Of a stretch of 64,000 nt of DNA, positions 15,738 through 42,992 are shown one piece after another. The position numbers and the translations under genes are program-made. Source of the DNA: a virus (taxonomy: Duplodnaviria > Caudoviricetes); the IMG/VR virus record IMGVR_UViG_3300028485_000003, positions 2,247-66,246 of that record; one strand, 5' to 3'. Under the pieces are notes generated by a model. The model worked only from the letters and a program-made list of their open reading frames with translations, did not search any database and was not told the origin of the DNA. Each line of letters opens with the position of its first letter. Position 1 is the stretch's first letter.

Positions 15738-15770
15738 ACGGTAGGACGCCCCGCGCGAAGATCGTTCCGG
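15738..15770 (-). promoter_or_regulatory. Putative late promoter (leaderless)
   Basis: CCGGAACGAT-N17-TACCGT-N7-ATG(15730). Confidence 0.7.
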
Positions 15771-15775
15771 AGTGG

Positions 15776-18574
15776 TCAGGTGCCGAAGCGGCCCAGGTCG
15801 AACTGGCCCTGTGTCGGATGGTCGAAGATGAACACCGCGTCCGGGTCATCGGCGGCGGTCGGGTCGAACACGCCGTCGTCGAAGCCCAATCCGGCCACGT
15901 CGAACGTGAACGGGTTCGGCGGCACGATCAGGCCGGTGCGCTCGCAGCCCAGCGTGGCGTAGTGGACGCGCTGCTCGCAGTCCACGGTCTCCTGCTCGGT
16001 GGAGGGCATGCGGGCGATGGTGTGCTCGATGCTCTCCACGTGGAAGCCTGCGTTCAGGCCGAGCTCACCGTGGGAGATGGTGATCAGGTCGGAGATGGTG
16101 CGGGTCAGGATCTGCAGCAGGTGCTCCTCGTCGGAGGACACCAGCCGCAGCTGCACCGTCGGCCGGCGCTGCGCGTAGTGGGCCAGCAGCAGCAGAGCGA
16201 CCGCGTAGGCGTCGTGGGTGCCGGACCAGGGGGCGTCGTTCGGGTTGGAGCGCTGGCCGTGGCGTTGGATGGACACCGAGTCGGAGGCGCTGACCTTGGT
16301 GGTGCGCGGGGAGGGGATCGCGCGGGCGCGCAGGGCAATGCGGGTGATGGTGACGGTCCCGCCGACAGCGGTGATGCTGATGGTGGTGGACTGGCCGGAC
16401 GTGCGGGTGATGGCTGCGGCGACGGTCCCGACGCCGTGATACAGGATGTCGGTTCCGGCGACAGGGGTGATGGCCTCCCGGAACGGATCGGATGCTTTGG
16501 CCTGGATCTGGATGCTCTGGCCGAGGGCGAGGGTCAGGGTGTCGGTGCTCTCCCACACCACGTCCGGGTTGGGGTCGGGGCGGCGTTCGTCGATGTCGAA
16601 GGAGACGTCGTTGACGATGTCGCGCCAGCCGTGGGAGTAGCCGAACGGCGGCAGGAACGACAGGCCCGTCACCGGCGGGGCGGTGCAGTCGACTTCCTGC
16701 GCAGCGAACGCGGCCTGCGGGGTCAGCGACGCCGGCCGCTGGAGGCGGTGGTGTCGGTCGCGGAAGACGAACGTGCCGTCCGGGCTCACGTAGGCGATGG
16801 AGGGCGGGCCCTCGGACTCGAGGAGGTCGGTGAGGGCCTGGAAGGCGTCGGTCTCCTCCAGCCACCACCACGGCACGAACGTGGCGCCGAGGTCGATGTC
16901 GCGGGGGAGGGTCCAGCCGATGGTGTCGAGGATGATGTCGATGAGGATGCCGGTGCGCTGCGCCTCGTACAGCTCGGTGCTGATTTTCGTGCCTTGGAGG
17001 AGTGCGAGGAGGTCGAGGGCAGTGATGTCGATGCTGCGGTTGTCGCGGTCGGGGTGGACGTCGAGGTCGTCGACGCGGCCCACGAACAGCGGGTACAGCA
17101 CGTCGTCGTAGACGGTTTCGACGACGACGGGGGCGGCCGGGCTCATGTCGTCAGCGATCGGCGACTCCGCATTCTCCGGGCTGTAGATGCGGTCCGCGTT
17201 GCACAAGGTCATCGCCAGGGAGCCCACCTTGGGTGGGGCGAGCTGGCGTGCCTGGTCGCGGCCGTACCCGAAGGTGACCGGTCCTCGTTGGAGGACATCG
17301 CTGGTGACGTCGTCATGCGGTCCGTCGAAGTCGCCGTCCGCCACCCAGTCGACGGCCACTGTGTAGCCGGGCGGCAGGACAGGGGTGACGTTGAAGTCGT
17401 CGAAGTAGGCGTAGTCGCTGGAGGCGGGGCCGCCGGTGACGAGCGGCGTGCAGTGCGCCAGCAGCTGCACGGAGAGGTTGTTCTGCGCCGTCCAGGCCGG
17501 GGCATCCTCCGCATGCTGGGTGGTCCACTCCCGGCCGTCGGGGCTGGTCTCCCAGGACAGGATCGACGCGGACTCCCGGATCCGCAGCCACGCGTGCGCG
17601 ACCGGATCGTAGGGCACCGTGTCGGCGTTCTCGTCGATGTAGTTCTCGTGGACGGCCATCAGCAGCAGGTTCGTCGCGGCGTCCACCTCGAACACGATCT
17701 GCGTGCCGGTCACATCGGACAGGACGAGGAGTTGGGCGTAGGCCTCCAGATGGCCCGGCCCGGGCGGCGGCGTCAGGTGGACGCGGACCTCGGAGTCCTG
17801 GAGACGGTAGATGTCCGCGGAGGCGTAGGCGGCGAACCCTTCGTCGCAGGGCACGCGGGCGCGGCCGTCGGGCTGGTCGGGGAGCGTCCCGCTCGGTGCG
17901 GTGTTGTAGTTGTTCGGCCACTTCCCGGTGTCGACCGTGGGTGCGGTGAACGTGTCGGTGAGGTCGGTGAACACCGCCGTCGACGGGGTCGGCGTGACCG
18001 GCAGGTTGAAGTTGTCGAACTCCGCCACATCCGGCGTACCGCCGTCGCGGTGGGAGATGAGCTGGACCTCCAGGTCCGCGTCCCCCACCCACGACGGCGA
18101 GGTGGCGGCCCGCTGCTCCGTCCACGTCTCCCCGTCGCCGCTGGTGTCCCAGTACAGGGTGCCCGACTCCTCCCGGATGCGGAGCCACCGGTGCTCGTCC
18201 GGGTCGTAGGTCAGCGTTTCGGCGTCCGGGTCGAAGTAGCTCGCGCGGACGGCCATGTTCAGCAGCCCCGACACCGCGTTCACCTCGATGATCGCGTCGG
18301 TGCCCGCCGTCGAGGAGGTGACGAGGAGCTGCGCCCACGCCTCCGCCGCCGCACCCCCGGCCGCCGGCGGGTACATCTCCACCAGCGCGTAGGAGTCGGC
18401 GAGGGTGTAGGAGCCGCCGCTGGCGAACGCCGCGAACCCCGTGTCGCACGGCACCTGCGCGCGGCCGCCGGCCTCGGTGGGTGCGGCGCCTGCGGTGTTG
18501 TAGTTCGACGGCCACTTGGCCGCGTCGACGGTGCCGTCGTCGAAGTCATCGGTGAGGGTGTCCAGCAGTGCCAT
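15776..18574 (-). CDS. Large minor tail protein with two tandem N-terminal beta-sandwich domains
   Basis: Follows tape measure gene; two ~190-aa repeats (KWPSNYNTA.../KWPNNYNTA...) then tail hub-like region. Confidence 0.8.
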   Translation of the reverse strand: MALLDTLTDDFDDGTVDAAKWPSNYNTAGAAPTEAGGRAQVPCDTGFAAFASGGSYTLADSYALVEMYPPAAGGAAAEAWAQLLVTSSTAGTDAIIEVNAVSGLLNMAVRASYFDPDAETLTYDPDEHRWLRIREESGTLYWDTSGDGETWTEQRAATSPSWVGDADLEVQLISHRDGGTPDVAEFDNFNLPVTPTPSTAVFTDLTDTFTAPTVDTGKWPNNYNTAPSGTLPDQPDGRARVPCDEGFAAYASADIYRLQDSEVRVHLTPPPGPGHLEAYAQLLVLSDVTGTQIVFEVDAATNLLLMAVHENYIDENADTVPYDPVAHAWLRIRESASILSWETSPDGREWTTQHAEDAPAWTAQNNLSVQLLAHCTPLVTGGPASSDYAYFDDFNVTPVLPPGYTVAVDWVADGDFDGPHDDVTSDVLQRGPVTFGYGRDQARQLAPPKVGSLAMTLCNADRIYSPENAESPIADDMSPAAPVVVETVYDDVLYPLFVGRVDDLDVHPDRDNRSIDITALDLLALLQGTKISTELYEAQRTGILIDIILDTIGWTLPRDIDLGATFVPWWWLEETDAFQALTDLLESEGPPSIAYVSPDGTFVFRDRHHRLQRPASLTPQAAFAAQEVDCTAPPVTGLSFLPPFGYSHGWRDIVNDVSFDIDERRPDPNPDVVWESTDTLTLALGQSIQIQAKASDPFREAITPVAGTDILYHGVGTVAAAITRTSGQSTTISITAVGGTVTITRIALRARAIPSPRTTKVSASDSVSIQRHGQRSNPNDAPWSGTHDAYAVALLLLAHYAQRRPTVQLRLVSSDEEHLLQILTRTISDLITISHGELGLNAGFHVESIEHTIARMPSTEQETVDCEQRVHYATLGCERTGLIVPPNPFTFDVAGLGFDDGVFDPTAADDPDAVFIFDHPTQGQFDLGRFGT

Positions 18575-22981: not shown

Positions 22982-23313
22982 AGGACGACGTCGCCCATCT
23001 GATCGTCGTCGATGGGGTTGGCGTGGTCCTTGAGCCGTGCGGCGAACCGCTCGTAGGAGTCGGGGAGGAGTACCAGGGAGAGGGCGTGCTTCAGCGCGTC
23101 GTGCGTCTGCTGGTAGTCGTCGGTTTCGGCGCGGCCGTTGTAGGTGGTGATGAACTCGGCGAAGACGTCGCCGGGGATGACGGATGCGGCTGTGAAGGTG
23201 TCGGTGTCGATGGTGAAGTCGAGGCGCTTGCGCTTCTTGGTGAAGTCACGGGCCGCCGGTGGGGCAGGCGGTGTGGGCGCGATGCCGTTCGGGGACGTGA
23301 GGAGGTCGGTCAT
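22831..23313 (-). CDS. Tail assembly chaperone
   Basis: Position before tape measure; ...LLEEYGMRPT then low-complexity tail. Confidence 0.75.
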   Translation of the reverse strand: MTDLLTSPNGIAPTPPAPPAARDFTKKRKRLDFTIDTDTFTAASVIPGDVFAEFITTYNGRAETDDYQQTHDALKHALSLVLLPDSYERFAARLKDHANPIDDDQMGDVVLWLLEEYGMRPTQPSQPSSDGPASPESGTSSTESTQPEESTSQPSPQTAS

Positions 23314-23320
23314 GCGGGTG

Positions 23321-23353
23321 ACGGTAGGTTCGCCCCGCGCATGATCGTTCCGG
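23321..23353 (-). promoter_or_regulatory. Putative late promoter (leaderless)
   Basis: CCGGAACGAT-N17-TACCGT-N7-ATG(23313). Confidence 0.7.
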
Positions 23354-27757: not shown

Positions 27758-29512
27758 TCAGACTCGGACGGTGCCGGTCAGCAGCGCCGACGAGGAGCCG
27801 TTGACGTTGAAGCCGACCGTGTACCGGCGGGACTCGTGCCCGACCTTCGCGATCAGGTGCGCCTCCTCCGACCACGCCGCCGTGTGATCGTTGGTCGAGT
27901 TGAGGACGCTGTCGCGGACGACGCCGAGGTCGAGGGTCATGCCGTTGCCGTGGATGAACGTGCCGGCGGCGTAGATGAGGAAGTCCACCGTGGTCGGCCA
28001 GGCGGTCATCTTGGTGGCGTTGCCGAACTGGCTGGTGCCGCGGACCTGCCAGTCGTTGACCCACTGGACGGCGATGTTCCGCGAGGTGAAGTACCGGTTC
28101 ACCTCGCTGAGCGGGATGTCGCCCAGTTCGACGCCGGCCTTCCAGGCGAGGTCGGCCTGGATGACGTCGCGGACCCAGTACGGGAAGACGACCTCGAGGA
28201 CGTCCTCGATGCACATGCCGTAGCGGGCCCGGTAGTCGGTGGCGGCGAGGCCGACCGCGTTGTAGATCCGTGGGGCCGCGGCGTCGGTGGCGGTGCCGCC
28301 GATGGAGGTCGCGGAGGTGGAGCGGGCGAGCATGAGCGCGATGAGGCGGGCGTTGATGACGTGCGCGTGCGCGGCCATCAGGAGTTGCAGGGTGTTCTGC
28401 GTCGACTCCGGGTAGGCGTCGTCGGTGAGGTTGCCCGCGGTCAGGCAGTAGCCGTATGCCTCGAGCCTCTCCTCGTCGAAGTCGGGGCAGGGGACGCGCA
28501 TGCACGGCTTGGTGGGGGAGCCGGTGGCGGCGGCGATGTCGTCGGCCTCGGTCCACAGCCACGGGTTCGACTCGTTGCTGAACGTGGCGGCGAATCCAGC
28601 GAAGGCGTCGCCGCCGGCGAGGGCGTCGGCGAGGCTCGGGGAGACGGGGAACTGGATGCCGCCGCGGGTGACGCCGAAGGTCGGCAGGTCGATCATGCCG
28701 GACTCGCAGGCGATGTTGAAGAAGTCGTAGCGCGTCTCGGACGGCGCGCACCAGCCGCCGCCTGCGACGAGCGCGGCCTGCTTGTCGGGACCGGTGAGGT
28801 AGTGGATGAGGTCCTTGATCTCGCCGCGGGTGGTGCGGTTGTCGACGCTGTGGGAGAAGTCGTTGCGGACGGACGCGACGAGCTGCTCGCTGGGCTGCCC
28901 GGAGGTGACCGGCATCGACTTGGCCTTGCGGGCCGTGACCTCGGCGAGCGCGGTGAGGCTGGTGATGCCCTCGCCGCGGGCGACGCCGGGGATGTCGACG
29001 GAGGCGGTGACGGCCAGGCGCTGCTCGCGGACCTGGGGGGTGGGGGCGTGCTGCGCGGTCTCGGCGAGGCTGGCGGTGGCGCGGCGGGCGATCTCCTCGG
29101 GGCGGACGCTGCCGCCCTTGCGGTCCATCATCAGCGTGGCCATGCCGGCGGTGACACCGCGTGCGGCGGCGGCGGCGATGGCTTCGATGTCGACGGCCGG
29201 GGCCTGCTCGGCCTGGGCCTGGGCGGTGGGGGCGCCGTTGACGCGGGCCTGGAGCTGGGAGAGCTGGTCGGCGACGCGGGCCTGCTGGAGGGAGGCCTGC
29301 TGTTCGGCGCGGACCTCGCGGACGCGGAGTTCGGCGCGGATGCGGTCGAGGTCGTCGGTCAGGCGCATCGCGTAGGCGAGCGTGTCGGGCTCGACGTTGT
29401 CGAGGCCGCTGACGCGCTCGAACTCGGTGACCGCGCGGGTCTCCAGCTCGGTGAGGTCGGTGTCGGACGCGAGGGTGAGATCGGACGGGGCGCTGAACAG
29501 CTCGTCGGCCAC
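27758..29512 (-). CDS. Major capsid (hexamer) protein with N-terminal scaffold-like region
   Basis: Coiled-coil N-terminus; ALVAGGGWCAPSE, GVTRGGIQF motifs recalled from mycobacteriophage cluster-B-type capsids. Confidence 0.8.
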   Translation of the reverse strand: MADELFSAPSDLTLASDTDLTELETRAVTEFERVSGLDNVEPDTLAYAMRLTDDLDRIRAELRVREVRAEQQASLQQARVADQLSQLQARVNGAPTAQAQAEQAPAVDIEAIAAAAARGVTAGMATLMMDRKGGSVRPEEIARRATASLAETAQHAPTPQVREQRLAVTASVDIPGVARGEGITSLTALAEVTARKAKSMPVTSGQPSEQLVASVRNDFSHSVDNRTTRGEIKDLIHYLTGPDKQAALVAGGGWCAPSETRYDFFNIACESGMIDLPTFGVTRGGIQFPVSPSLADALAGGDAFAGFAATFSNESNPWLWTEADDIAAATGSPTKPCMRVPCPDFDEERLEAYGYCLTAGNLTDDAYPESTQNTLQLLMAAHAHVINARLIALMLARSTSATSIGGTATDAAAPRIYNAVGLAATDYRARYGMCIEDVLEVVFPYWVRDVIQADLAWKAGVELGDIPLSEVNRYFTSRNIAVQWVNDWQVRGTSQFGNATKMTAWPTTVDFLIYAAGTFIHGNGMTLDLGVVRDSVLNSTNDHTAAWSEEAHLIAKVGHESRRYTVGFNVNGSSSALLTGTVRV

Positions 29513-29703
29513 GGTGTCCTCCGGATCGAAGGGTGTTGTGCGCCCAGATGTTGGCGCCCTTTTGACCGGAGGTTAGCGCATAGCACACAGACCGGCAAAG
29601 ATCAAAATATCTTCACCGGTCCGCATAATAGAAGGTCAGAGGCTTGCCGGAGGCGGAGGCGGAGGCTTCGGCCGCCGCTTCTTATTGCAACTGCACACGC
29701 TGT

Positions 29704-32661: not shown

Positions 32662-34438
32662 TGCTGCTCCGAGTCGTCGTCGAGAAGAAGCCGCTGGTGT
32701 CCATGAGCGGGGCGTGCCGGCCGATCGTGAACCGGCCGAAGCTGTCGAGGCGGGCCTCGTACACCCCGGACGTCCCCGGCCGCGGCAAGCTGTGGAGCTT
32801 CAAGGCGGCGTGCGTGAACGGACAGCTGTAGGCGTGCTGTGCGCACAGGCCCGGGTGCAGCAACTCCGGCGGCCGGCCCGTCGCGAACTTCACCGCGTGC
32901 AGCACCTGCGCCTGCTGCACCAGTCGTTCCTGACGCGCGGCCGCCGCAGCCTGCCGGGCCTGCTCCGCCCCCGGTGGCTCCCCGGCGTTCGGTGCGTCCC
33001 GGGCGTCCGGCTCTGGCGGCTCGGGCTGGTCGGCCTGCTCCGCGGCCTCGGCTGGTGTGGCCGCGGCGACGGGGGTGATGTCGACGCGCTCGCCGATGAG
33101 GGTGGACAGTGCGGACCCGGCGCCGGACGGCAGCGTTTTGATGATGACCTTGAGGGCTTGCTCCTTGAGTTCCTCGTCGCTCGGCTTGTCCGCTTCGTCG
33201 AAGCCGGTCTCGCGGCGAAGCGCGGCGCCGTCGATCTCCAGCCGGTCGTACAGCTGGATGGCGTTGTCGGAGCGGTCGGGGCGCAGGGTGAGCTCGGACA
33301 TGTCGTACCAGACGACCCACGACGCCCAGTCCTCCACATGGGAGGCGCGGAGGCGGGGCTGAAGGTAGCCGGTGGTGATTGCCTGGCAGATCGTCTCGGC
33401 GTCCGGCGCGATGTTCACCTTCAGCGATGTCTCGTCGACGGCCCAGGCGTTCCAGTGGTTGAGATCGCCCATGCCGAGGAGGACTTCGGGCGGGATGTTC
33501 AGCTGGGTCGCGAGCCGCTTGATTGCGGACTCGCGCTTGTCGATGATCTTGTCGTCGATCTGCAGGGTGAAGTCCAGGTGCCGGATCTTGTCGACGTACT
33601 CGGCAGGCACCTTGATCGGGATCGGCACCGTCGCGGCCGCCGTCCCTGGGGTGCGGATCGCCTCCGCCGCGATCTCGATCCACTCCGCCATGAACGGATC
33701 CGGCGCGTCCGCGAACTCCTCCCGCACCGGAAATGTGATCTCGTCCGGGACCAGCCACACACCGGCCGACGCCAGCCGGGACAGGTACTGGGCGACGATG
33801 TGCCGGTTGACCAGCTCTAGCTCACGCATCGTCGTGCGCGCCGCCCGGGCGGGGCTGTCGGCGAGGTGGTGATATCGCTTGTTCGGCTTCCACACCCGGA
33901 TGGGCGGCATCGAGTCCTGGGCGAGGGGCCGCCAGTTGTGGCCGGTGGTGGGGCTGTTCTCGTCGATGACCTCGTAGTGGCCGCGCGCCGCCCGCACCTC
34001 GTCGATGGAGCGGACGGACCACTTCTCGATACCGCTGGCGTTCTCGACGATGAGGTAGCCCTCGCCGGGCACGGTGAGCTGGGTGCCGAGCCCGTCCATG
34101 ATCTGAGCCTGTCCGGCCGGGCCGCCCGCGAACTGCGTCATCAGGTCCACGGCGGTGCCGGCCTTCGCGCGGACGGGCTCGTCGACGCCGGGCTCGAGCT
34201 TCGCCGCGTAGAGGCGGACGCGGGAGAGCATCTTCGATTCCCAGTCGACTGCGTACCGGAATTCGCCGAGGGCGTCGTGGAATTGCCAGACCTCCTCCTG
34301 CCACATGTCGGTGGTGCGGAGGAGGTGGGTGCGGGGTTCTTTGACGGGGGCTGCGGCGGCGGTGAGGGCTGGTGGCTGGAGGGGTGGGGCTGCGGCGGGC
34401 AGGGGGCCGCGTCGAGTAAAGGTGTGCCACCAGGCCAC
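32642..34438 (-). CDS. Portal protein
   Basis: About 598 aa after terminase; SRLASAGVWLVPDE, LNIPPEVLLGMGDLNHW; GGAGG SD before GTG. Confidence 0.85.
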   Translation of the reverse strand: MAWWHTFTRRGPLPAAAPPLQPPALTAAAAPVKEPRTHLLRTTDMWQEEVWQFHDALGEFRYAVDWESKMLSRVRLYAAKLEPGVDEPVRAKAGTAVDLMTQFAGGPAGQAQIMDGLGTQLTVPGEGYLIVENASGIEKWSVRSIDEVRAARGHYEVIDENSPTTGHNWRPLAQDSMPPIRVWKPNKRYHHLADSPARAARTTMRELELVNRHIVAQYLSRLASAGVWLVPDEITFPVREEFADAPDPFMAEWIEIAAEAIRTPGTAAATVPIPIKVPAEYVDKIRHLDFTLQIDDKIIDKRESAIKRLATQLNIPPEVLLGMGDLNHWNAWAVDETSLKVNIAPDAETICQAITTGYLQPRLRASHVEDWASWVVWYDMSELTLRPDRSDNAIQLYDRLEIDGAALRRETGFDEADKPSDEELKEQALKVIIKTLPSGAGSALSTLIGERVDITPVAAATPAEAAEQADQPEPPEPDARDAPNAGEPPGAEQARQAAAAARQERLVQQAQVLHAVKFATGRPPELLHPGLCAQHAYSCPFTHAALKLHSLPRPGTSGVYEARLDSFGRFTIGRHAPLMDTSGFFSTTTRSSNGYARR

Positions 34439-34468
34439 GGTCGCCTCCAGTGCGTGGGTCTGGGGCGC

Positions 34469-34501
34469 AGGGTAGGTACGGGCTGACGAAGATCGTTCCG
34501 G
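34469..34501 (-). promoter_or_regulatory. Putative late promoter
   Basis: CCGGAACGAT-N17-TACCCT upstream of portal. Confidence 0.65.
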
Positions 34502-34635
34502 GGTGTGAGTGAGGGCCGTCCGTGATGCGCGACACGGACGGCCCTCAACCACCACACCCCGGAGCCCGCCAGGCCCCGGGTCTCCTACCCGCCGCGAATG
34601 CTACGGCCCTCCGCGCCCACCGCGTTCCGGACGGA

Positions 34636-35070
34636 TCACGCCCACTCCTGCGCCGCCAGCAACGCGCCCGCGCCCCACACCGCCGCCCACACCAACACCG
34701 GCAGCGGCAGACCGGCCGTCGCCCACACCCCTGCCGTCACCCCGGCCGCGACCCAACCCGACGCGCACCAGGGGCAGGAGATCAGCTCAGCCAGCCAGAA
34801 CGGCGACCGCTTCCACCGACGCCCGTAGATCTGCAACTCCCCGTCGACGAGGCTGAACATGCCGAGACCAGCGACGGCCCTCAGACAGCCCTCCTCGACT
34901 TCCCCCTGCGGGTACAGATCGTGGTGCTGCTCCTTCATCGTCGGCTCGCGCCACCCGCCGACGAGCCGGTCCCGCAGCCACAGCACCGGCGGAAACGTGT
35001 CCTCCACCACCAACTTCGTCCCCCGGTACGTCGCCAGCGACATCACAACCAGCAGCAGCCACACATCCAT
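34636..35070 (-). CDS. DUF1360-like membrane protein
   Basis: LATYRGTKLVVEDTF...LISCPWCASGWVA. Confidence 0.7.
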   Translation of the reverse strand: MDVWLLLVVMSLATYRGTKLVVEDTFPPVLWLRDRLVGGWREPTMKEQHHDLYPQGEVEEGCLRAVAGLGMFSLVDGELQIYGRRWKRSPFWLAELISCPWCASGWVAAGVTAGVWATAGLPLPVLVWAAVWGAGALLAAQEWA

Positions 35071-35732
35071 CACACGCCACCCCTCAACCACACCGACTTC
35101 TGGTGAGTCGTCGGAACGGCGCAGTCCACATGCACCGGCACGCCCACACAGCCCAGCCGCCAGCAGAACGACAGATCCTCACCCACCAGATTCCCCGCCC
35201 CATCGACCACTGGGTCGAACCACGACCCGTACTCAACTCGATCCAGCGCCATCCGGTGCACCAGCAGGCAGGCCGCACCCGTCCCCGCCACCCGCACCAG
35301 TCCCGACGGCACAGGCCCTTCCCACTCCGTGAAGACCTTCGCCTCCTCGGCTCGGCCGTGCAGCGTCGGGAAGACCCGCGTCACCACACCACCCATATCG
35401 TCCGGCTCGCCCTCGACCACCCCGTAGCAGAGCGCACCCACCACCGGCCGCTCCCGCGGGTCAGCGGTCGCGAGCAGCTGGTGCAGCGCGTCCGGCCGGA
35501 AACCCATGTCCGTGTCGACGAACCACAGCCACTCCCCGTCTCCCGCCAGGAACTCGGCGACCGCCTGGTTGCGGACGTGGGCGATCCCGGCCGGCCGGAA
35601 CCGCACCGGCATCACCCCGACAATCACCGGCCCGTCCGACGAGCGGTCGTGGCTCATGGCCAACATCAGCGACTGCATGAACGTGTGCTGCACCCACCCG
35701 GGATGCACATAGGTGACGACGACTCCGCGCAT
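35070..35732 (-). CDS. Glycosyltransferase, GT-A fold (GT2-like)
   Basis: VRNQAVAEFL...WLWFVDTDM...GAACLLVHR...GEDLSFC. Confidence 0.8.
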   Translation of the reverse strand: MRGVVVTYVHPGWVQHTFMQSLMLAMSHDRSSDGPVIVGVMPVRFRPAGIAHVRNQAVAEFLAGDGEWLWFVDTDMGFRPDALHQLLATADPRERPVVGALCYGVVEGEPDDMGGVVTRVFPTLHGRAEEAKVFTEWEGPVPSGLVRVAGTGAACLLVHRMALDRVEYGSWFDPVVDGAGNLVGEDLSFCWRLGCVGVPVHVDCAVPTTHQKSVWLRGGV

Positions 35733-35737
35733 GCCGG

Positions 35738-37147
35738 TCACCGTATCCGTCCTCCGGCGATCTGCTTTCTGGCCAGATCCCCGCCCAACGAACCCTGCCC
35801 GCGGGTCATCGTGCCGACCAGCCGCATGTGCCATGGTCCCCAAACGGCTGCGTCGAGGCGATCCGGTGACCAGCCCAGCTCGGGATACCAGGTGCACAGC
35901 TGCTCTTCGAGCTCCTCGAACTTCCCGGCATGGTGCCAGCGTCCCTGCGCCGACAGTGCGGCGACCGGCTGTGCCCGCACGGCCTTGCCCTGTGTCGCGC
36001 GTACCTTCCGCACCGGGATGTCCACGCCGACCTTCTCCATCGCCGTCCGAATCACAGCGATCGCTTGGTCCCCTCCGTAGTTAATTTCTACGCATATGTC
36101 CTCGGCCTCCCAGTCGATCGCGGCCCGCACCGCACGCTCGCCCCACCCCTCCGGCGGCAGGTGGCACGACCGGTCGTCCAGGACAAACCCGTGGTGCTGC
36201 GGACGCTGCTGCACCGGCCGCGCCTCGTCCGGGTCCGGGTCAGGCGCCGGCAGGGCGCCGGGCAGGAACAGCCCGGACTTCGCGGTGACGACGATGCCCT
36301 GCTCCCCGGCACCGCCGGACGGGTCGACGCCGACGGTGCGGCGGATCGTGCCGGGCAGATCGTCCAGCCGGATCCGTGAGGCGGCCAGGTTTTTCCTACG
36401 CCAGAAGGCGTTGGCCATCTCGTCGAGGATTTGCCCGTACAGCTCCTGCTCGCCGAGGTCGGTACCGCCGTAGGCGTCCTCGAGCATCTGCCGGATGTGC
36501 TCGGGGAGGTGGGGGTTGTTGTACATGGTGGCGTGGGTGGTGACCACGCCGGGGATCTCTCCGGCTTTCAGCCGGCCCAGGAGCGGCTTCGGCTTGGGGG
36601 TGGTGGAGGCGACCCAGTGCGGGCGTGGCCCGGAGCGGAGGCCGAACCGCAGTTGATCGAAGGACTGCTGCATGTACCGCCAGGCGGCGAACTCTTCCAG
36701 CCAGGCGACGCAAGTATTTCCCCCGGCCCGGAGTCGCTCTACGTCCTCGGGGTTGCTGGCCCCGTACAGCTTGGCCTGGCTGCCGTTAGCCCAGCGGACG
36801 ACGGTGCCGCCCGCGGTGGTGATGGGGCCGGATGCGGTGGGGTCGTGGGCTTTGATGCCGGACGGGCCGGACACGCAGGCGGTGACGGCGTCGCCTTGGG
36901 TGGGGGCGATGATGCCGACCCAGTGGGGGATGGGGCCGGGGAGGCAGGGTGGTCCGGCGACGTGGCGGGCGATGTATTCGGCGCAGGCGTCGGTTTTCCC
37001 GGCGCCGCGGCCGGCGAGGAGGAGCCATCCGTACCAGTTGCCGGGGGGCGGTATCTGGTGCGGGAGCGGCGTCCAGCTCGGCTTGAGTTGGGCAGCGAGG
37101 AGGGCGGCGGCGCGTTGTGCGATGCGGGCCCGGTCCTCGGTGGTCAT
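35738..37147 (-). CDS. Terminase large subunit
   Basis: Walker A AGRGAGKT, Walker B WLEEF, nuclease GVDP...PDRLDA. Confidence 0.92.
   Translation of the reverse strand: MTTEDRARIAQRAAALLAAQLKPSWTPLPHQIPPPGNWYGWLLLAGRGAGKTDACAEYIARHVAGPPCLPGPIPHWVGIIAPTQGDAVTACVSGPSGIKAHDPTASGPITTAGGTVVRWANGSQAKLYGASNPEDVERLRAGGNTCVAWLEEFAAWRYMQQSFDQLRFGLRSGPRPHWVASTTPKPKPLLGRLKAGEIPGVVTTHATMYNNPHLPEHIRQMLEDAYGGTDLGEQELYGQILDEMANAFWRRKNLAASRIRLDDLPGTIRRTVGVDPSGGAGEQGIVVTAKSGLFLPGALPAPDPDPDEARPVQQRPQHHGFVLDDRSCHLPPEGWGERAVRAAIDWEAEDICVEINYGGDQAIAVIRTAMEKVGVDIPVRKVRATQGKAVRAQPVAALSAQGRWHHAGKFEELEEQLCTWYPELGWSPDRLDAAVWGPWHMRLVGTMTRGQGSLGGDLARKQIAGGRIR
35740..35772 (-). promoter_or_regulatory. Putative late promoter variant (leaderless)
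   Basis: CCAGAAAGCA-N17-TACGGT-N7-ATG(35732), overlapping the terminase 3' end. Confidence 0.45.
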
Positions 37148-37153
37148 GGGTGG

Positions 37154-37186
37154 ATTGTGGCTTCCGGTTGAGGCGGGGCTTTCCGG
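37154..37186 (-). promoter_or_regulatory. Putative late promoter variant (leaderless)
   Basis: CCGGAAAGCC-N17-CACAAT-N6-ATG(37147). Confidence 0.55.
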
Positions 37187-37285: not shown

Positions 37286-37286
37286 C

Positions 37287-37910
37287 TTATCGACGTAGGC
37301 GCCCGCGGGTTCTGGCTCCGGGGCGGGCGTCGCCGCGGTTGGGTTGGCCGCTGGAGTTCGCGCCGTGGTGGTGCCAGGTCCACGTGCGCGCGGGGTGGTG
37401 GACGATGCGCGCTCCGGCGGCGAGGCATCCGAGGGTGAAGTGCCAGTCCTCCCCGCCTCGCTGGCCGCCGACCATGCTGCCGGCGGGCGGCTGGCGGAAG
37501 CCCACCTGTTGGGCGAGGTCGGTGCGCACCAGGATGGTGATGGTGGTCTGGTGGGGGTGGGCGTCGTCCCAGGGCTTCCCGAAGAACATGGGGAAGGGGT
37601 CGGAGCCGCCCTTCACGCGGAACCAGGGGTACACGTAGTCGGCGCTGGTGTCGCGGGCGCAGGCGAGGAGCTGCTCGATGTGGTCCGCGTCCATCTCGTC
37701 GTCTGAGTCGAGGAACGCGGTCCACTCGGTGTCGACGAGTTCGAGGCCTGCTTGTCGGGTGGTGGCGGCACCCTTGCGGTGGATGTCCTCGGCGAGTTGG
37801 AGGTGGACGGGGATGGTCTGCTGTTGGACGGAGCGGGTGGCGCGGTCGAGGAGTCCGCTGCGCCGTCGGGCCTCATGAAACGGGACGACGACGGTGACGC
37901 CGGGCTTCAC
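37287..37910 (-). CDS. Glycosyltransferase family 2
   Basis: VTVVVPFH, WTAFLDSDD (DxD), GGEDW. Confidence 0.85.
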   Translation of the reverse strand: MKPGVTVVVPFHEARRRSGLLDRATRSVQQQTIPVHLQLAEDIHRKGAATTRQAGLELVDTEWTAFLDSDDEMDADHIEQLLACARDTSADYVYPWFRVKGGSDPFPMFFGKPWDDAHPHQTTITILVRTDLAQQVGFRQPPAGSMVGGQRGGEDWHFTLGCLAAGARIVHHPARTWTWHHHGANSSGQPNRGDARPGARTRGRLRR

Positions 37911-38089
37911 GGCGCGTCCTCGCCGCCGTCCTCGGCAGCAGCGTGCTCCGCTAGGTGCTCCTGGACTGAGGCTGTGCTGAACGTGACCGATGCCGTGGCG
38001 CGGCCCGTCATGCGGAGGGTGAGCGGGATGGTCAGGGTCTTGCCGCAGCCAGGGCAGTCCACCTGCGCGGTTGCGTCGTCTGCTCTCAT
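37907..38089 (-). CDS. Small zinc-ribbon-like protein
   Basis: VDCPGCG...EHLAEH; coupled within the sugar operon. Confidence 0.55.
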   Translation of the reverse strand: MRADDATAQVDCPGCGKTLTIPLTLRMTGRATASVTFSTASVQEHLAEHAAAEDGGEDAP

Positions 38090-38523
38090 CGCGGCGTCCC
38101 CTTCCACAGGATCTCGTTGTCGCCTTGCACCCGCAGCTCCAGCGTCTTCCACAGCCGGATGCCGTAGTCGGCGTTCGCCGCGAAGTGCCCGTCGAAGTAG
38201 TGGAACGACTCCACGCACCAGAAGCTGACGTGCGTCGGATCCGCCCACGCATGCCACGTCCCGCTGAGCGCGTTCGGCACCCGAACCTCGAACACGCCGC
38301 CCGGGCGCAGCACCCGGTGCGCCTCGTTCATCACCGCCAGCCGCGGATCCCCGGCCGGGATGTGCTCCATCACGTGCGCGGCCCGGATCGCCTCCACCGT
38401 CCGGTCGCCGGTCGGCCACGGGGTGTCCTGCGCCAACCGCTTCCAGTCGCCGTGTCCGTTGCGGGAGTCGAGGTTCGTCCACCCCGCAGGCACGATGTGC
38501 CCGCCGCCGATCTCCAGCTTCAC
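38086..38523 (-). CDS. Class I SAM-dependent methyltransferase
   Basis: KLEIGGG motif I, AHVMEHI, RVLRPGG. Confidence 0.85.
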   Translation of the reverse strand: MKLEIGGGHIVPAGWTNLDSRNGHGDWKRLAQDTPWPTGDRTVEAIRAAHVMEHIPAGDPRLAVMNEAHRVLRPGGVFEVRVPNALSGTWHAWADPTHVSFWCVESFHYFDGHFAANADYGIRLWKTLELRVQGDNEILWKGTPR

Positions 38524-39182
38524 GAGTGCCGTCCGCTTCCCTCGTACCGCAGCCACTGGTTCCCCAGGTGCGAGCCCGGGAGCGCGGCCGGGCGGAGCCG
38601 CGTCTTACGCAGCACGTACGGCTGTGACACCTGGTCCCGCGACGACCCGGCCTCGATCTCCTTCGCCCACATCGCACCCATCCGCTTCACCGCCGGCGTG
38701 TGCTGGCGGGCGATCACCCCGGACGCCCACAGCCCCCACTGCTCGGGGTGCTTCGCCTTCCGGTACCGGGCCACCTGCCATGCGGCGATGCCGTCCGGGT
38801 CCATGCCCAGCCGGGCGACCTCGGCGGCCTCGCTGTAGAGGCAGTCCCGCCACGGGTGGACGAACTGGGCGATCGGGTCGGCGAGGGCCAGGACTTCGAG
38901 GGCGAAGGTGGGCGAGGTGATGCGGTAGCTGGCGTCCACCCAGATGCTGGCGGGGGCGTCGGTGTACCGCCAGGGTTCCAGCTTCGGCGTCTTCGCTGCG
39001 CGCACCGGGGGGAGCTCCGGCCGGGGCTCGTGCACGACCGTCCACCCGCGCGCCGCGTCGGCGTCCGGGACGGTGTCGGTGACGAGGATCCACTCCACGT
39101 CCACACCCGACTGCCGCAGCACCGGCTTCACCGTGTCGTACCCGTCGAAGACTGCGCTGATGATCGCTACGTCTGCGGTCAC
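38520..39182 (-). CDS. DUF616-like putative glycosyltransferase
   Basis: FDGYD, IWVDAS, HPWRDCLYSEA, RDQVSQPYVL. Confidence 0.7.
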   Translation of the reverse strand: MTADVAIISAVFDGYDTVKPVLRQSGVDVEWILVTDTVPDADAARGWTVVHEPRPELPPVRAAKTPKLEPWRYTDAPASIWVDASYRITSPTFALEVLALADPIAQFVHPWRDCLYSEAAEVARLGMDPDGIAAWQVARYRKAKHPEQWGLWASGVIARQHTPAVKRMGAMWAKEIEAGSSRDQVSQPYVLRKTRLRPAALPGSHLGNQWLRYEGSGRHS

Positions 39183-40009
39183 TTGTACCACCTCACCACT
39201 TCTGCGATCCGGTCCCAGTCCAGGCCGGGCTTCCAGTCCAGCCGCTCCCAGCCCTCGCCCTCCGCGGTGATCTGCACCGGCACCTCACCCGGCCGCATCG
39301 GCAGGTGCTCGACACCGGCCGTGGACCCGGTCACCTCCAGCACGAACGCGGCCAGCTCGTTGACCGTCACCGGCACCCCGGTCCCGGCGTCGAACGTGAC
39401 ATCGTCGCCGTGCTCCACAGCCTCGACGAGCATGCGGCCCACGTCGTCGGAGTGCACGAGGTCGATGGCCTGCTCCCCATCACCCCAGATCGGCAACGGG
39501 CGCCCCTCCCACGCGGCACGCGCGAACGTCGGCACGATCTTCTGCGGGTGCCCGGGCCCGTGCGCCTGGTGGGGGCCGTATCCGTTGAACGCGCGGACGG
39601 TGGCCACGCGCAGTCCGTACGCCTGATGCCAGGCGGTCGTCAGCCGGCGGGCGGCGACCTTCGTCGCGGTGTACACGCTGGGGAAGGGGTCCGGCATGCT
39701 GATGCCGACGTAGCCGGCGTGGTGGTCGCGGCACCACTGCAAGATGCGGAGGGTGCCTTTGATGTTGACGTCGAGGGCGGTCTCCGGCATGTCGAACAGC
39801 TCGGACGTGCCGAGGACTCCGGCGAGGTGGATGACCACATCGGCGTCGGCGAGGGCGTCGAGTGAGCCGAGGACGTCGTGGCCGAGGGTGTAGTCGAACG
39901 GCCACACCTCATGCCCGGCGGCCTCGGCGGCCTGGATGGTGGCGCGGCCGAAGAAGCCGGCCCCGCCGGTGACTGCGAGTTTCAAGGGTGTCTCCTGGTT
40001 GTTCACCAT
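39179..40009 (-). CDS. NAD-dependent sugar epimerase/dehydratase/reductase (extended SDR)
   Basis: TGGAGFFG, YTATK (YxxxK), FNGYGP. Confidence 0.88.
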   Translation of the reverse strand: MVNNQETPLKLAVTGGAGFFGRATIQAAEAAGHEVWPFDYTLGHDVLGSLDALADADVVIHLAGVLGTSELFDMPETALDVNIKGTLRILQWCRDHHAGYVGISMPDPFPSVYTATKVAARRLTTAWHQAYGLRVATVRAFNGYGPHQAHGPGHPQKIVPTFARAAWEGRPLPIWGDGEQAIDLVHSDDVGRMLVEAVEHGDDVTFDAGTGVPVTVNELAAFVLEVTGSTAGVEHLPMRPGEVPVQITAEGEGWERLDWKPGLDWDRIAEVVRWYK

Positions 40010-40680
40010 GGGGTGCGGCCCCACTTCTGTCGGAAGGTCTCCCGGTCCCGCACGGTCTGCGCTTCGAGCTCGGGCCGCTCGTACAGGGAGCCGTTCGGGC
40101 ACCGGTGGTCCACCGGGATGCCGGGCACGAGGAGCGCACCGCCTGCCTCACGGGCCTGCCAGTCGAGATCATCGTCCGAGTACCACCAGGCCATGGACTC
40201 GTCGAGGCGCAGCCCGTGCTCGCCGCGCAGCATGTACGCGAAGCCGGTGATCCGCTGCCGCAGATCGATCGGGCCGGCCTTCGTGTGGAGGATCTGCTGT
40301 CGGCCGCCGTGCTGGTCGGGGAAGGCGAGGACCGCGGTGGTGCAGCGCATCGCGGTCGACAGTGACTCCACCCAGCCGGGCGGGACGACGACGTCGTTGT
40401 TGAAGACGGCGATGTCCCACGCCGTAGCGCCGGCCGCGTGCGCGTTGCTGTCGGCGAGGGCGATGCCCACGTTCCAGAACGTGGAGATGTTCGGCGGATC
40501 CAGGGGGAGCCGGACAACAGCCACCTTGCCGTGCCACTGCTCCGCGTCCACCGGCGGATCGGACAGGTTGTCGACGATGATGACCTGGTCGACCTGATCC
40601 ACGACCGAGCCGACGCACTCGGTGAGGAGATCATGCCGGTCCCGGGTGGGGATCACCGCAGCCCTGAACGCGCCGCTCAC
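40003..40680 (-). CDS. Glycosyltransferase family 2
   Basis: VIPTRDR, IIVDN, VFNNDVV, WYSDDDL. Confidence 0.85.
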   Translation of the reverse strand: MSGAFRAAVIPTRDRHDLLTECVGSVVDQVDQVIIVDNLSDPPVDAEQWHGKVAVVRLPLDPPNISTFWNVGIALADSNAHAAGATAWDIAVFNNDVVVPPGWVESLSTAMRCTTAVLAFPDQHGGRQQILHTKAGPIDLRQRITGFAYMLRGEHGLRLDESMAWWYSDDDLDWQAREAGGALLVPGIPVDHRCPNGSLYERPELEAQTVRDRETFRQKWGRTPW

Positions 40681-41339
40681 CGGGCGTCCGCCTGCGCGTG
40701 CACCGCGGCCCGCAGCAGCGAGTCCGGCGTACCCATGTCCGACCACACACCCGGCACCTCGTGCACGTCCATGAGGCCGTGCTGCAGGTACCAGTTGTTG
40801 ACGTCGGTGATCTCCAGCTCGCCGCGCGCCGACGGCACCAGACCACGGACCACGTCGAACACCCGGTCGTCGTACACGTACAGGCCAGTCACCGCGAGGT
40901 CCGAGGTGGGGTCCTTGGGCTTCTCCACGATCCGGCCGGTGCCCGGCTCGTACACACCGAACGCCTCCGGCCGCTCCGTGCGGGCCGTGTAGATCGCAGG
41001 CCGGTCCGGCATCGTCATGTCGGCGGCGAAGTAGTTGTCGCCGAGGACTACCGGGAACAGGCCGTCGGTGAAACCCTCCGCCTGCGCGAGCGCCCCCGCG
41101 ATCCCGTCGGGCCGGTCCTGCACCCGGTAGGTGAAGCCCGAGCCGAGCAGCTGCGCGAACCCGCCGACGTTCTCCCCGCCGGTCACGATGAGGATGTCGG
41201 TACAGCCCATCGCCTGGAGCGTGGCGATCGGGTAGTAGATCATCGGCCGGTCGTAGACGGGCAGCAGATGCTTGTTGACCACGCGGGTGGTCTCGCCGAG
41301 CCGGGTACCGCGGCCACCCGCGAGGATCACGCCCCTCAC
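40677..41339 (-). CDS. rmlA: Glucose-1-phosphate thymidylyltransferase-like nucleotidyltransferase
   Basis: ILAGGRGTRL...NKHLLPVYDRPMIYYP, QDRPDGIAGA, LGDN, VEKP, GELEITD. Confidence 0.85.
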   Translation of the reverse strand: MRGVILAGGRGTRLGETTRVVNKHLLPVYDRPMIYYPIATLQAMGCTDILIVTGGENVGGFAQLLGSGFTYRVQDRPDGIAGALAQAEGFTDGLFPVVLGDNYFAADMTMPDRPAIYTARTERPEAFGVYEPGTGRIVEKPKDPTSDLAVTGLYVYDDRVFDVVRGLVPSARGELEITDVNNWYLQHGLMDVHEVPGVWSDMGTPDSLLRAAVHAQADAR

Positions 41340-42364
41340 GACTGCACCTGGGCAGGCTCCAGCCACGCCGGCCGGTCGCAGTACCAGTCGACGATGTCCT
41401 TCAGCGTCTCCTCGAGGGGGCGGCTGGGCCGCCATCCGGCATCGGCGAGTTTCGTCCCGTCGAGTGCGTACCGCAGGTCGTGTCCGGGGCGGGAGGCGTG
41501 GAAGGACACCAGCTCGTAGTGGAGGGGCTTGCCGATGATGTCGGCGATGATCTGCGCGACTTCGAGGTTGGAGCGCTCCTCGCCGACGATGTGCCACATC
41601 GACGGCCGGTCGTGGGTGGGGTAGCGCTGCGGTGTGGTGTGGTCGAGGAGGTGCATCCAGGCTGCGGCGAACTCGCGGGTGTCGATCCAGTAGCGGCTGC
41701 CGGGTACGCCGTCCGGGGACGAGTAGATCGGCACGGTCTCACCGGCGAGGACTTTCCGGATGACGGTGGGTACGAGTTTCTCTCCGCCCTGCCCGGGGCC
41801 GATGAGGTTCATCGTGCGGGTGAGGACGACGGGCACGCCGTAGGTGCGCCACCAGGCGGTCGCGAGCGCGGACTGGCTTGCCTTGGAGGCGGCGTATGGG
41901 TTGGAGGGGATGATCGGGTCCCATTCGCGGTGGGCGTATCCGGTGGGGGCTGGGCCGTACACCTCGTCGGTGTCCATCTGGAGGAACGCTCGGGGTTGTA
42001 CGCGGCGCGCGTACTCCAGGAGGTTCGTCATCAGCTCGGTGTTGTTGCGGACGAAGCTGACGGGGTTGGCGATGGAGTCCTCGACGCCGCTGTTGGAGGC
42101 CACGTTGAGGATGTAGTCGATGGGGCCGATCTCGCGGGCGAGGCTGTCGGGGATCGGGGTGGCGAGGTCGTGCATGACGGTGACGACTCGCTGATTCCAC
42201 GCGCCGGGCTCGGGGGCGTGATCGAGGGCGTCGGTGACGCGTTGGGAGTTGCCGCGGTGGCGCAGCGTCCATGGCAGGACGATGTCGGCGTCGGTGTGGG
42301 TGAGGAGGTGGGTGAGGACGTGGGAGCCGACGAATCCGCTGGCGCCGGTGAGGAGGATACGCAT
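41336..42364 (-). CDS. rmlB: dTDP-glucose 4,6-dehydratase-like
   Basis: TGASGFVG, TDEVYG, PSNPYAASKA, RPGHDLRYALD. Confidence 0.88.
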   Translation of the reverse strand: MRILLTGASGFVGSHVLTHLLTHTDADIVLPWTLRHRGNSQRVTDALDHAPEPGAWNQRVVTVMHDLATPIPDSLAREIGPIDYILNVASNSGVEDSIANPVSFVRNNTELMTNLLEYARRVQPRAFLQMDTDEVYGPAPTGYAHREWDPIIPSNPYAASKASQSALATAWWRTYGVPVVLTRTMNLIGPGQGGEKLVPTVIRKVLAGETVPIYSSPDGVPGSRYWIDTREFAAAWMHLLDHTTPQRYPTHDRPSMWHIVGEERSNLEVAQIIADIIGKPLHYELVSFHASRPGHDLRYALDGTKLADAGWRPSRPLEETLKDIVDWYCDRPAWLEPAQVQS

Positions 42365-42371
42365 GGCGGGG

Positions 42372-42404
42372 ACGGTAGAAGCCGCCCCGGCATGATCATT
42401 CCGG
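42372..42404 (-). promoter_or_regulatory. Putative late promoter (leaderless) of the sugar operon
   Basis: CCGGAATGAT-N17-TACCGT-N7-ATG(42364). Confidence 0.7.
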
Positions 42405-42953
42405 GGTGGTGGGCTCTCCTGCTCCGAGGAGGTGCTGCTGGGCTGCGCCGAGGGCGAGGACGCGCTGTTCGTGGTCGAGGCCGAGGGTGTCCATGGCGGC
42501 GGACAGTGCGGAGGCGACGAGTTCGCCTTCCATGTCGAGGCGGCGTTCCAGGGCGACCATGACGCCGGCGTCGACGGCCTGCTTGGCGGTGGTGGCGGCG
42601 AGTTTGCGTTCTTCGCGGGACTGCCGCATCCACGGCAGGAGTTCCTGCGGTGGGTTGAGGGGGTCGCCTCCGGCAGCGACGTGGTCGCGGAGCCGCTCTG
42701 TGATGATCGTGTCGACGTAGGCGGCCCGCCCGGTCGCGGTCCGGACGAGGCCGAGGAGCGCCTCGTGTGGGGTGACGTTCCGTTCGGCGGCGATCTCTTG
42801 TGCCATGGCCCATGCCTCCTCGACGTGCCGGTGTGCGCCTTTGTGCCAGCTGCAGGTTCCGTACCCGGGGTGGTTGGTGTTGTGGCCGGCGCGGTGGGAG
42901 CACATGCGGCCGTTGAGGTTGCGGGCGGGGCAGCGGGCCGGGTAGGCGGGCAT
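42396..42953 (-). CDS. Putative terminase small subunit
   Basis: C...C..RAG..T.HPGYGTCSWHKG zinc-knuckle-like N-terminus plus helical body; first gene of the late region. Confidence 0.55.
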   Translation of the reverse strand: MPAYPARCPARNLNGRMCSHRAGHNTNHPGYGTCSWHKGAHRHVEEAWAMAQEIAAERNVTPHEALLGLVRTATGRAAYVDTIITERLRDHVAAGGDPLNPPQELLPWMRQSREERKLAATTAKQAVDAGVMVALERRLDMEGELVASALSAAMDTLGLDHEQRVLALGAAQQHLLGAGEPTTPE

Positions 42954-42959
42954 GGGGTC

Positions 42960-42992
42960 ATTGTGGCCCGGCTGGGGCGGGTGATCTTCCGG
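42960..42992 (-). promoter_or_regulatory. Putative late promoter (leaderless)
   Basis: CCGGAAGATC-N17-CACAAT-N6-ATG(42953). Confidence 0.6.

Follow-up and report, generated by a model that had tools for sequence, protein, structure and literature searches.

We analysed a 64,000-nt stretch of viral DNA, referred to below as the window, which covers positions 2,247–66,246 of the record IMGVR_UViG_3300028485_000003 and is nearly the entire 66,246-bp record, and found that a short box, CCGGAA(Y)GATC(W)T, recurs in its late gene module together with a YANNNT hexamer at a near-fixed distance. We put at about 75% the probability that these boxes serve as late promoters in a temperate actinophage lineage and are recognized by a phage-specific factor at the box together with the primary sigma factor of the host. 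The same box was found in more than 100 uncultured relatives, ahead of virion and sugar-pathway gene blocks. In the proposed mechanism, the host RNA polymerase with its principal sigma factor (HrdB type) would read the YANNNT hexamer, mostly TACCGT or CACAAT, as a −10 element, a dedicated factor on the box (at about −40 to −28) would supply the missing −35 contact, and transcription would start 6–7 nt after the hexamer. At five junctions in the window the predicted start is the A of the ATG, which would give a leaderless mRNA, and at the portal gene and at a site inside a MuF-fusion gene the predicted start would give a leader of about 30 nt with a Shine–Dalgarno (SD) sequence. Seven units would then divide the 30-kb late region, namely TerS, the sugar genes, TerL, the portal, an internal MuF/protease product, the tail chaperone with the tape measure, and the distal tail genes, two of which (TerS and portal) are preceded by terminator-like hairpins. 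We infer the promoter activity, the late timing and the activator dependence of the boxes from the DNA sequence.

A box coupled to a −10-like hexamer

The original prediction for this DNA had described a recurring late-promoter motif, CCGGAA-N21-YACNNT, in eight copies. Indeed, the window contained eight exact matches to this pattern, compared with a mean of 0.15 and a maximum of 2 in 100 dinucleotide shuffles. Six of the matches, at 15738, 23321, 34469, 37154, 42372 and 42960, all on the minus strand, were among the predicted copies, and the predicted copy at 31214–31247 was present with an N22 spacer, as had been stated; the CCAGAA copy at 35740–35772 was left without support, as discussed below. 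The two extra matches, which had not been claimed earlier, look like chance: one, at 19994, lies inside the tape-measure gene, and the other, at 37183, is on the plus strand and overlaps the palindromic TTCCGGAA of the TerL site.

Alignment of the sites showed that the CCGGAA and the −10-like hexamer had been correctly recognized, but that the true box is longer, comprising 11–13 nt, CCGGAA(Y)GATC(W)T, with YANNNT following 21–22 nt after CCGGAA. The 11-mer CCGGAAYGATC thus defined occurs five times in the window, each time on the minus strand and never on the opposite one, against a base-composition expectation of about 0.06. The box is exactly CCGGAACGATC at 15760, 23343, 31237 and 34491, and CCGGAATGATC at 42394. 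The predicted TerS and TerL copies are present as well, but in altered form, the TerS gene being preceded by a one-base-deleted box, CCGGAAGATC, in which the Y is missing, and the TerL gene by CCGGAA alone. The copies at 15738, 23321 and 42372 are alike over about 45 nt, spacer included. Every box copy lies inside the late module, at 15.7–43 kb, on the gene strand, and a scan of the whole 66,246-bp genome, including the early and lysogeny regions, gave zero copies outside this interval. This comparison with early regions and shuffled sequence, which had been named as a check of the motif, thus came out in its favour; allowing mismatches in the whole-genome scan added only scattered two-mismatch matches within genes.

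The geometry of the sites was also as had been described, since the hexamer stands 6–7 nt from an ATG in six copies, at a distance of 6 nt for TerS and TerL and of 7 nt for the epimerase, the chaperone-position gene, a 116-aa tail-region gene and the glycosyltransferase (GT) variant. No SD was present upstream of the five genes of leaderless geometry in the window. With the A of the ATG taken as +1, the hexamer spans −13 to −8 (or −12 to −7), and the box occupies about −40 to −28. A −35 element of the TTGACA type could not be placed at 16–19 nt, where the sequence reads AYGATC, AAYGAT, GAAYGA or GGAAYG, and a generic sigma-70 promoter scan recovered none of the box sites. A scan for U-tract terminators detected neither a terminator excess nor any box site, and an Rfam search of 11–44 kb returned no match. 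Furthermore, the scanned open reading frames (ORFs) included no sigma-factor gene, the sole sigma-like match being a sub-threshold Sigma70_r4_2 hit in a non-conserved HTH_23 protein. An activator that acts on the box with the host principal sigma factor is the most economical model. The original prediction had called these promoters "activator- or sigma-dependent"; of the two options, an activator working with the host primary sigma factor is thus favoured, whereas a dedicated sigma factor is unlikely, because of the lack of a sigma gene in the scanned ORFs, the primary-sigma type of the −10, and a spacing that does not fit promoters of extracytoplasmic function (ECF) sigma factors.

A search with the portal protein as the query yielded 57 IMG/VR loci and five genome loci, including three Streptomyces prophages and one Nocardioidaceae metagenome-assembled genome. 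One prophage of the family lies in Streptomyces caniscabiei NE06-02D (NZ_JABXWI010000010.1, ~246–268 kb). Relatives with at least 66% portal identity carried CCGGAA[CT]GATC on the gene strand only and at fixed junctions: about 70 nt before the portal start, a further ~3.1–3.3 kb on inside the homologue of a 985-aa gene, before the epimerase gene, and before the chaperone-position gene. Five complete relatives had exactly four copies each, with zero on the other strand, and the variant form before TerS and the half form before TerL were conserved as such. Even at 52–58% portal identity, relatives kept the box with 0–1 mismatch before the tail operon in leaderless geometry, as detected by a mismatch-tolerant scan, and two of them have a visibly lower G+C content. 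Since the upstream flanks and spacers diverge freely while the box, the hexamer and their spacing are fixed, the sites form a phylogenetic footprint.

Over all related loci, we obtained 143 unique instances of the 11-mer, 139 of which were coupled to YANNNT, with N21 in 103 cases and N22 in 36. The hexamer was TACCGT in 80 instances (a count inflated by the IMG/VR collection pattern, which required TACCGT), CACAAT in 34 and TACCCT in 10, with others making up the rest. Sixty-nine instances formed a leaderless class, in which ATG (65) or GTG (4) followed 6–7 nt after the hexamer without an SD, and another 69 formed a leadered class with an SD, which used ATG in 34 cases and GTG in 35. Leaderless translation in actinobacteria requires a strong AUG preference and no SD. 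The share of 94% ATG in the 6–7-nt class, compared with 49% in the leadered class, thus fits leaderless translation, in line with the geometry originally proposed. The occurrence of the box at orthologous junctions, its restriction to the gene strand of the late module, and its coupling to the hexamer also support the earlier view that the late genes are driven by many promoters rather than one long transcript, and the conservation of the sugar-gene promoter in relatives upholds the assignment of the glycan genes to the same regulon.

We further examined the specificity of the composite of box and hexamer. In three prophage-bearing host genomes, 13 of 19 composite matches fell inside the prophage. 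Among 300 further Streptomyces genomes, 33 contained composite matches, nearly always a single one; 11 of these host-genome matches belonged to one conserved host coding sequence, and approximately four look promoter-like. The coding sequence carries the 11-mer (CCGGAATGATCGGCAAGAGCT..GACGGCACC.T) in at least 11 species; here the composite pattern is matched by chance, and the site is not a promoter. The exact composite was not found as a host regulon in the 300 genomes, in a scan that demanded the exact 11-mer and within whose reach a degenerate host motif would not fall. When the TACCGT-restricted pattern was run across 2.9 million IMG/VR contigs, 86 of the 88 matching stretches encoded late proteins of this family. 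The composite is a signature of this phage lineage.

Sites along the late module

A functional map was built from Pfam and PHROG scans of the window proteins. The record has a G+C content of 70%, and its minus strand holds almost all genes. An early/replication region with genes for a DnaB-like helicase, a DNA methylase, an Lsr2-like protein and a PP2C-like phosphatase runs on the minus strand from ~64 kb to 43 kb, followed on the same strand by the late module, from 42,992 down to ~12 kb. The latter begins with the putative TerS, seven sugar-pathway genes, TerL, a glycosyltransferase and a DUF1360 protein, continues with the portal, a 985-aa fusion protein, the major capsid protein and head–tail connector proteins, and ends with the chaperone-position gene, the tape measure, minor tail proteins, an endolysin and another glycosyltransferase. 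Beyond it lie a counter-oriented pair on the plus strand, a winged-helix gene (11306–11569) and a WhiB-like gene (11581–11976), and further a tyrosine integrase gene (6372–7625) and a cI/Cro-like switch near 5.2–5.9 kb, alongside accessory genes. On the basis of the integrase, the switch and the gene map, the virus is a temperate actinophage (Streptomyces-type), and its record is cut at an arbitrary point in the early region.

The putative TerS promoter (42951–42992, minus strand) consists of the box CCGGAAGATC at 42983–42992, the −10 hexamer CACAAT at 42960–42965 and the ATG at 42953, in leaderless geometry, and the variant CCGGAAGATCACC...CCACAAT-N6-ATG was present in relatives G001–G005. 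The TerS label is given by position; the protein has no Pfam match and belongs to phrog_3678, a family of unknown function. Directly upstream of this box is a GC-rich, terminator-like hairpin without a U tract (42999–43033, minus strand; −28.8 kcal/mol), with equivalents of −27 to −30 kcal/mol in G001–G004. A similarly placed strong hairpin (34506–34551, minus strand; −34.7 kcal/mol) stands directly upstream of the portal box, with counterparts in G001 (−28.7 kcal/mol), G003 (−35.3 kcal/mol) and G010 (−29.4 kcal/mol), against a background with a mean of −15.4 kcal/mol and a 5th percentile of −23.9 kcal/mol. The strong hairpins before these two boxes (−27 to −35 kcal/mol) fit separate transcription units, and the other boxes, which have no such preceding hairpin, may act as boosters within longer transcripts.

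The sugar-pathway promoter (42362–42404, minus strand) has the box CCGGAATGATC at 42394–42404 and the −10 hexamer TACCGT at 42372–42377, again in leaderless geometry with respect to the ATG at 42364, where a gene for an NAD-dependent epimerase/dehydratase begins; the box is conserved before MRILLTGA... genes in the relatives. This gene opens a seven-gene sugar-nucleotide/glycosyltransferase block (37287–42364, minus strand) between the putative TerS and TerL, encoding the epimerase/dehydratase, a nucleotidyl transferase, two GT2 glycosyltransferases, a second epimerase, a TOD1/MUCI70-like protein and a methyltransferase. A sugar block is retained wholly or partly at the TerS–TerL position in most of the relatives examined, which suggests virion glycosylation as a lineage trait.

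At the TerL promoter (37145–37186, minus strand), the half box CCGGAA (37181–37186), without GATC, is followed by CACAAT (37154–37159) and, in leaderless geometry, by the ATG at 37147. The arrangement CCGGA(A/C/G)-N21-CACAAT-N6/7-ATG was kept in G001, G003 and G004, and CACAAT-N6/7-ATG in G002 and G005. The doubtful GT copy (35730–35772, minus strand) has the form CCAGAA-N21-TACGGT-N7-ATG and lies before a glycosyltransferase gene specific to the window. We regard it as unsupported: it lacks GATC, falls within the TerL 3′ end, and stands before a gene missing from all ten relatives. An ordinary SD-led start, GGAGG followed by GTG at 35741, is available to this gene as an alternative. The glycosyltransferase itself (35070–35741, minus strand; phrog_34859) seems to have been inserted recently between the TerL and DUF1360 genes.

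The two leadered sites carry the box CCGGAACGATC. The portal promoter (34436–34501, minus strand) comprises the box at 34491–34501, the −10 hexamer TACCCT at 34469–34474, and a leader of ~30 nt with the SD GGAGG before the GTG at 34438; essentially all relatives with at least 66% portal identity have the box about 70 nt upstream of the portal start. The internal promoter (31180–31247, minus strand) lies in the 985-aa ORF (29704–32661, minus strand), which has an RNA-ligase/2H-like N-terminus, a protease-like middle and a MuF/phrog_859-like C-terminus. Its box (31237–31247), which encodes A-G-T/M-I within the continuous reading frame, is followed, at N22 from its CCGGAA, by CACAAT (31214–31219), a leader with the SD GGGAGG, and an in-frame GTG at 31182 (codon 494). 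The ORF was continuous through this site in all seven genomes compared, and the box, the hexamer, the SD and the GTG/ATG were all retained. The arrangement predicts an in-frame nested gene that would yield a separate C-terminal product of ~490–610 aa.

In the tail region, the tail-operon promoter (23311–23353, minus strand) has the box CCGGAACGATC at 23343–23353, TACCGT at 23321–23326 and the ATG at 23313, in leaderless geometry. The gene at 23313 is just upstream of the tape measure and is called the chaperone gene by position; its box is the most widely conserved copy, with 0–1 mismatch even in G006–G009, whose portal identity is 52–58%. The distal tail promoter (15728–15770, minus strand) is built in the same way, with the box CCGGAACGATC at 15760–15770, TACCGT at 15738–15743 and the ATG at 15730, where the gene for the 116-aa Cys-containing protein of the tail region begins, and its box is conserved before MAQLL/MVQLI...RARARV..DCPR genes in G002, G004, G005 and many IMG/VR contigs.

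Other promoter-like elements were noted in the window. The major capsid gene has an element of its own of the ordinary type, TTGCCG-N17-TAACCT (29570–29598, minus strand), about 60 nt upstream of the start GTG at 29512, with a structured leader after it. Close relatives have conserved this element, and distant ones possess comparable elements. In the early region, at ~45811–45933, three TAGGCCTAC-type palindromes, one of them degenerate, surround a promoter-like TTGACA-N18-CATACT between the divergent genes 45013–45810 (minus strand) and 45934–46209 (plus strand), and this site looks like an operator/promoter switch.

Candidate readers of the box

The mosaicism of the family narrows the search for the protein that reads the box. 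A megablast search against cultured phages gave no close relative, and the portal is at most 40% identical to that of any cultured phage in a protein search. A tblastn comparison of every window protein with ten complete or near-complete relatives revealed that the mosaicism is extreme: the late module is common to all ten, at 45–90% protein identity, and the early, replication and immunity regions show essentially no relationship, with almost none of their genes shared between any two of the relatives G001–G010. The cI-like gene (5439–5870), for example, is shared with one of the ten, while the box is invariant. The reader is therefore either a host factor or encoded in the shared module, and since a WhiB-like (Wbl) protein and a small winged-helix protein are the only regulators shared family-wide, these two are the best candidates.

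The first candidate is an 87-aa winged-helix protein (11306–11569, plus strand, opposite to the late genes; Pfam DprA_WH/HTH_24) with a conserved N-terminal GRPR motif. Its gene was found in all ten full relatives, at 41–56% identity, and adjoins the WhiB gene in six of them. The second is a 131-aa Wbl protein (11581–11976, plus strand; PF02467, E 8e-11), also present in all ten (42–82% identity), where its gene lies beside a homologue of the GT gene 11945–12994. In 30 homologues, C20, C45, C48 and C54 as well as G65-Y-W-G-G69 are invariant or nearly so, and after the GYWGG turn come an invariant basic stretch and a second, C-terminal Cys4 motif resembling a zinc ribbon. PDB profile matches to WhiB1 (4e-11) and Streptomyces venezuelae WhiB (4e-9) covered only residues 10–87, and the second Cys4 motif was not covered by any solved Wbl structure in this search; the combination of WhiB and zinc ribbon was absent from the cultured-phage collection searched. 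An AlphaFold2 model from the 30-sequence alignment had a pLDDT of 53, with the entire C-terminal half below 50, a quality too low for assessing the C-terminal domain. Upstream of this two-gene cassette, at ~11240–11305 (plus strand), is an AT-rich region, TGCATAATG..TTCAG..N..A(A/G)TGAAT, conserved in several relatives. Within it are a CATAAT −10-like hexamer and repeats of the word ATGAAT, and the timing of the cassette may be controlled from here.

Wbl proteins are known to interact with region 4 of sigma-A and to contact the DNA beside the −35 element, and WhiB acts with the helix-turn-helix (HTH) protein WhiA, one target of the pair, sepX, being leaderless (PMC10243135). These precedents make the cassette the best candidate. 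We tentatively suggest, at somewhat less than even odds, that the reader is the phage Wbl/zinc-ribbon protein acting on sigma region 4, possibly with the GRPR winged-helix protein. The more specific proposal, which we regard as doubtful, is that the Wbl protein with its zinc ribbon, alone or with its GRPR neighbour, would read the box as a −35 substitute, and that all virion and virion-glycosylation genes would be served by such a Wbl-based appropriation of sigma.

Both the box and the Wbl gene were present in all 11 full family genomes. Boxes were also found in small phage-like Streptomyces elements. Box promoters of leaderless geometry occur in L104 (G012:C89, ~68.5–70 kb), L102/L103 (G011:C17, at both contig ends), L193 (G034:C1, ~4.254 Mb) and L194 (G176:C361, ~29.8 kb). 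The boxes of these elements precede a gene for a ~298-aa MerR/excisionase-like HTH protein with CRWC...CxxCGPG motifs (HTH-Cys4). L104 has a second box, in front of a gene resembling a tape measure; proteins of this kind are also encoded in L193 and L194, and a TerS-like stretch lies just upstream in L104 and L194. No phage-type WhiB or winged-helix gene was found near the boxes of the G011 and G012 elements, or anywhere in the searches of G034 and G176. These elements could be satellites or remnants that rely on a helper phage, or could equally be evidence for a host reader.

Several points weigh against a phage-encoded activator. The candidate genes are read from the strand opposite to the late genes and sit where the late module ends, adjoining lysogeny genes, a placement that is unusual for a late activator, albeit not unprecedented. 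The elements of G034 and G176 carry boxes in genomes where a phage-type WhiB was not found (E≤1e-12), which indicates that a host factor, or a helper phage in trans, may read the box. Moreover, the box is nearly invariant even at 52% identity, leaving no variation for covariation with the candidate readers, and a degenerate host regulon would lie outside the reach of the exact 11-mer scan of host genomes.

We considered that a host protein, either an alternative sigma factor or a conserved actinobacterial transcription factor, might read the box, in which case the phage would need no activator of its own; this seems to us rather improbable. The GGAAY within the box resembles the −35 of ECF-type sigma promoters, and box promoters of leaderless geometry in elements of genomes without a detected phage-type WhiB point the same way, as does the lack of any gene shared among the early regions of the relatives, given which a host factor would explain the invariance of the box simply. 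However, the exact composite was essentially absent from the 300 other Streptomyces genomes outside phage-like contexts and the one coding sequence, although with the limit to the exact 11-mer noted above, and most matches in prophage-bearing hosts (13 of 19) fell in the prophage. The invariant block of 11–13 bp exceeds the length of a −35 element, and a YANNNT −10 with a start 6–7 nt downstream is of the primary-sigma type. An ECF-sigma promoter in particular was rejected: the distance from GGAAY to CGT is 23 nt instead of 16–17 nt, the CGT is not conserved (CACAAT, TACCCT and others), and the scanned ORFs contained no cognate sigma gene.

A phage activator with the host primary sigma factor also accounts for the sites better than repressor binding. 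The stoperators of cluster A mycobacteriophages, such as the gp71 sites of L5, are short asymmetric repeats found genome-wide and tied to the immunity repressor, and analogous sites might silence the late genes in the lysogen. The boxes are likewise short, asymmetric, numerous per genome, in a single orientation to transcription and located in intergenic gaps of an actinophage. In contrast to stoperators, they are confined to the late module and never early, are linked at a rigid spacing to a −10 hexamer and, for half of them, to an ATG 6–7 nt on, and stay invariant among relatives whose cI/Cro-like genes and whole early regions differ, independently of repressor type, which makes this explanation highly improbable. 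An equally slight chance is left for repeats that are not transcription signals at all but recombination or module-boundary, packaging or translation signals, or copies spread by duplication, as the ~45-nt likeness of three copies and their location at module junctions of a mosaic genome might suggest, since the spacers diverge around a fixed box, hexamer and spacing, in 7/7 genomes an in-frame copy inside a coding sequence has an SD and a start codon after it, the ATG bias (94% versus 49%) fits leaderless initiation, and Rfam gave no match. The start-associated sequences of cluster K phages include the ribosome-binding region. They share with the box the short asymmetric form and single orientation in intergenic gaps, but the leaderless box copies have no SD-like content, and this reading was rejected on content.

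Relation to known systems and implications

The proposed promoters resemble several known systems in part. At the middle promoters of phage T4, a MotA box acts with AsiA-remodelled sigma-70 (PMC6755090); there, as here, a phage-specific box replaces the −35 element, the −10 is of the ordinary primary-sigma type, and many copies precede one temporal class of genes, a match in architecture only. The box in the present lineage lies near −35 instead of −30, the host is an actinobacterium, half of the instances are leaderless, and the predicted class is late, not middle. The Pfam and PHROG scans, which together covered most called ORFs, gave no homologue of MotA or AsiA.

P2 Ogr, P4 delta and Mu C are small phage activators of late promoters, and Ogr is zinc-binding. 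The ogr gene is found near att, where the late region ends, and the P4 and SaPI satellites carry helper-type late promoters, to which the cassette-free, box-bearing elements described above are similar. Staphylococcal RinA is a late-gene activator of temperate phages (PMC3152322). As in these cases, a small phage activator is proposed here for several late promoters without a good −35, but no sequence relationship to Ogr/delta, Mu C or RinA was found. Ogr binds dyad sites near −55 and RinA acts on a single promoter before terS, in contrast to the seven promoters here, with an asymmetric box over the −35 position. The box system belongs to none of the T4 middle, Ogr, Mu C and RinA classes, as no homologous factors were found and the box differs in position and symmetry.

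The Wbl-dependent promoters, such as that of sepX with WhiA/WhiB and those of the WhiB7 regulon, share other features with the phage system, in that a Wbl protein is the most conserved regulator of the phage family, WhiB works with an HTH partner, and the sepX promoter is leaderless. The box is, however, neither the GACAC of WhiA nor the AT-rich site of WhiB7, and the phage protein, a candidate for binding sigma and the box, has the extra C-terminal Cys4 module. In a 2021 survey, the WhiB of phage TM4, which acts on host whiB2, was the only functionally studied phage WhiB (PMC8612146). Our literature search found no paper on the box, the promoter class or a late activator of this lineage.

To our knowledge, few actinobacteriophage late promoters have been characterized, and the analysis provides a precise, family-wide late-promoter consensus with exact predicted transcription starts. 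The regulon joins virion assembly with a phage sugar-nucleotide/glycosyltransferase pathway, and the internal in-frame promoter should give a second product from the MuF-fusion gene. In addition, the search for the activator is narrowed to two small conserved proteins, one of them WhiB-like. If the Wbl-based reader proves true, the box elements without the cassette would be satellites exploiting the activator that an incoming helper phage brings along. With a confirmed reader, the box and its activator would offer a compact, orthogonal and tight off/on expression switch for Streptomyces, and the box would also serve as a marker for prophages and possible satellites of the lineage.

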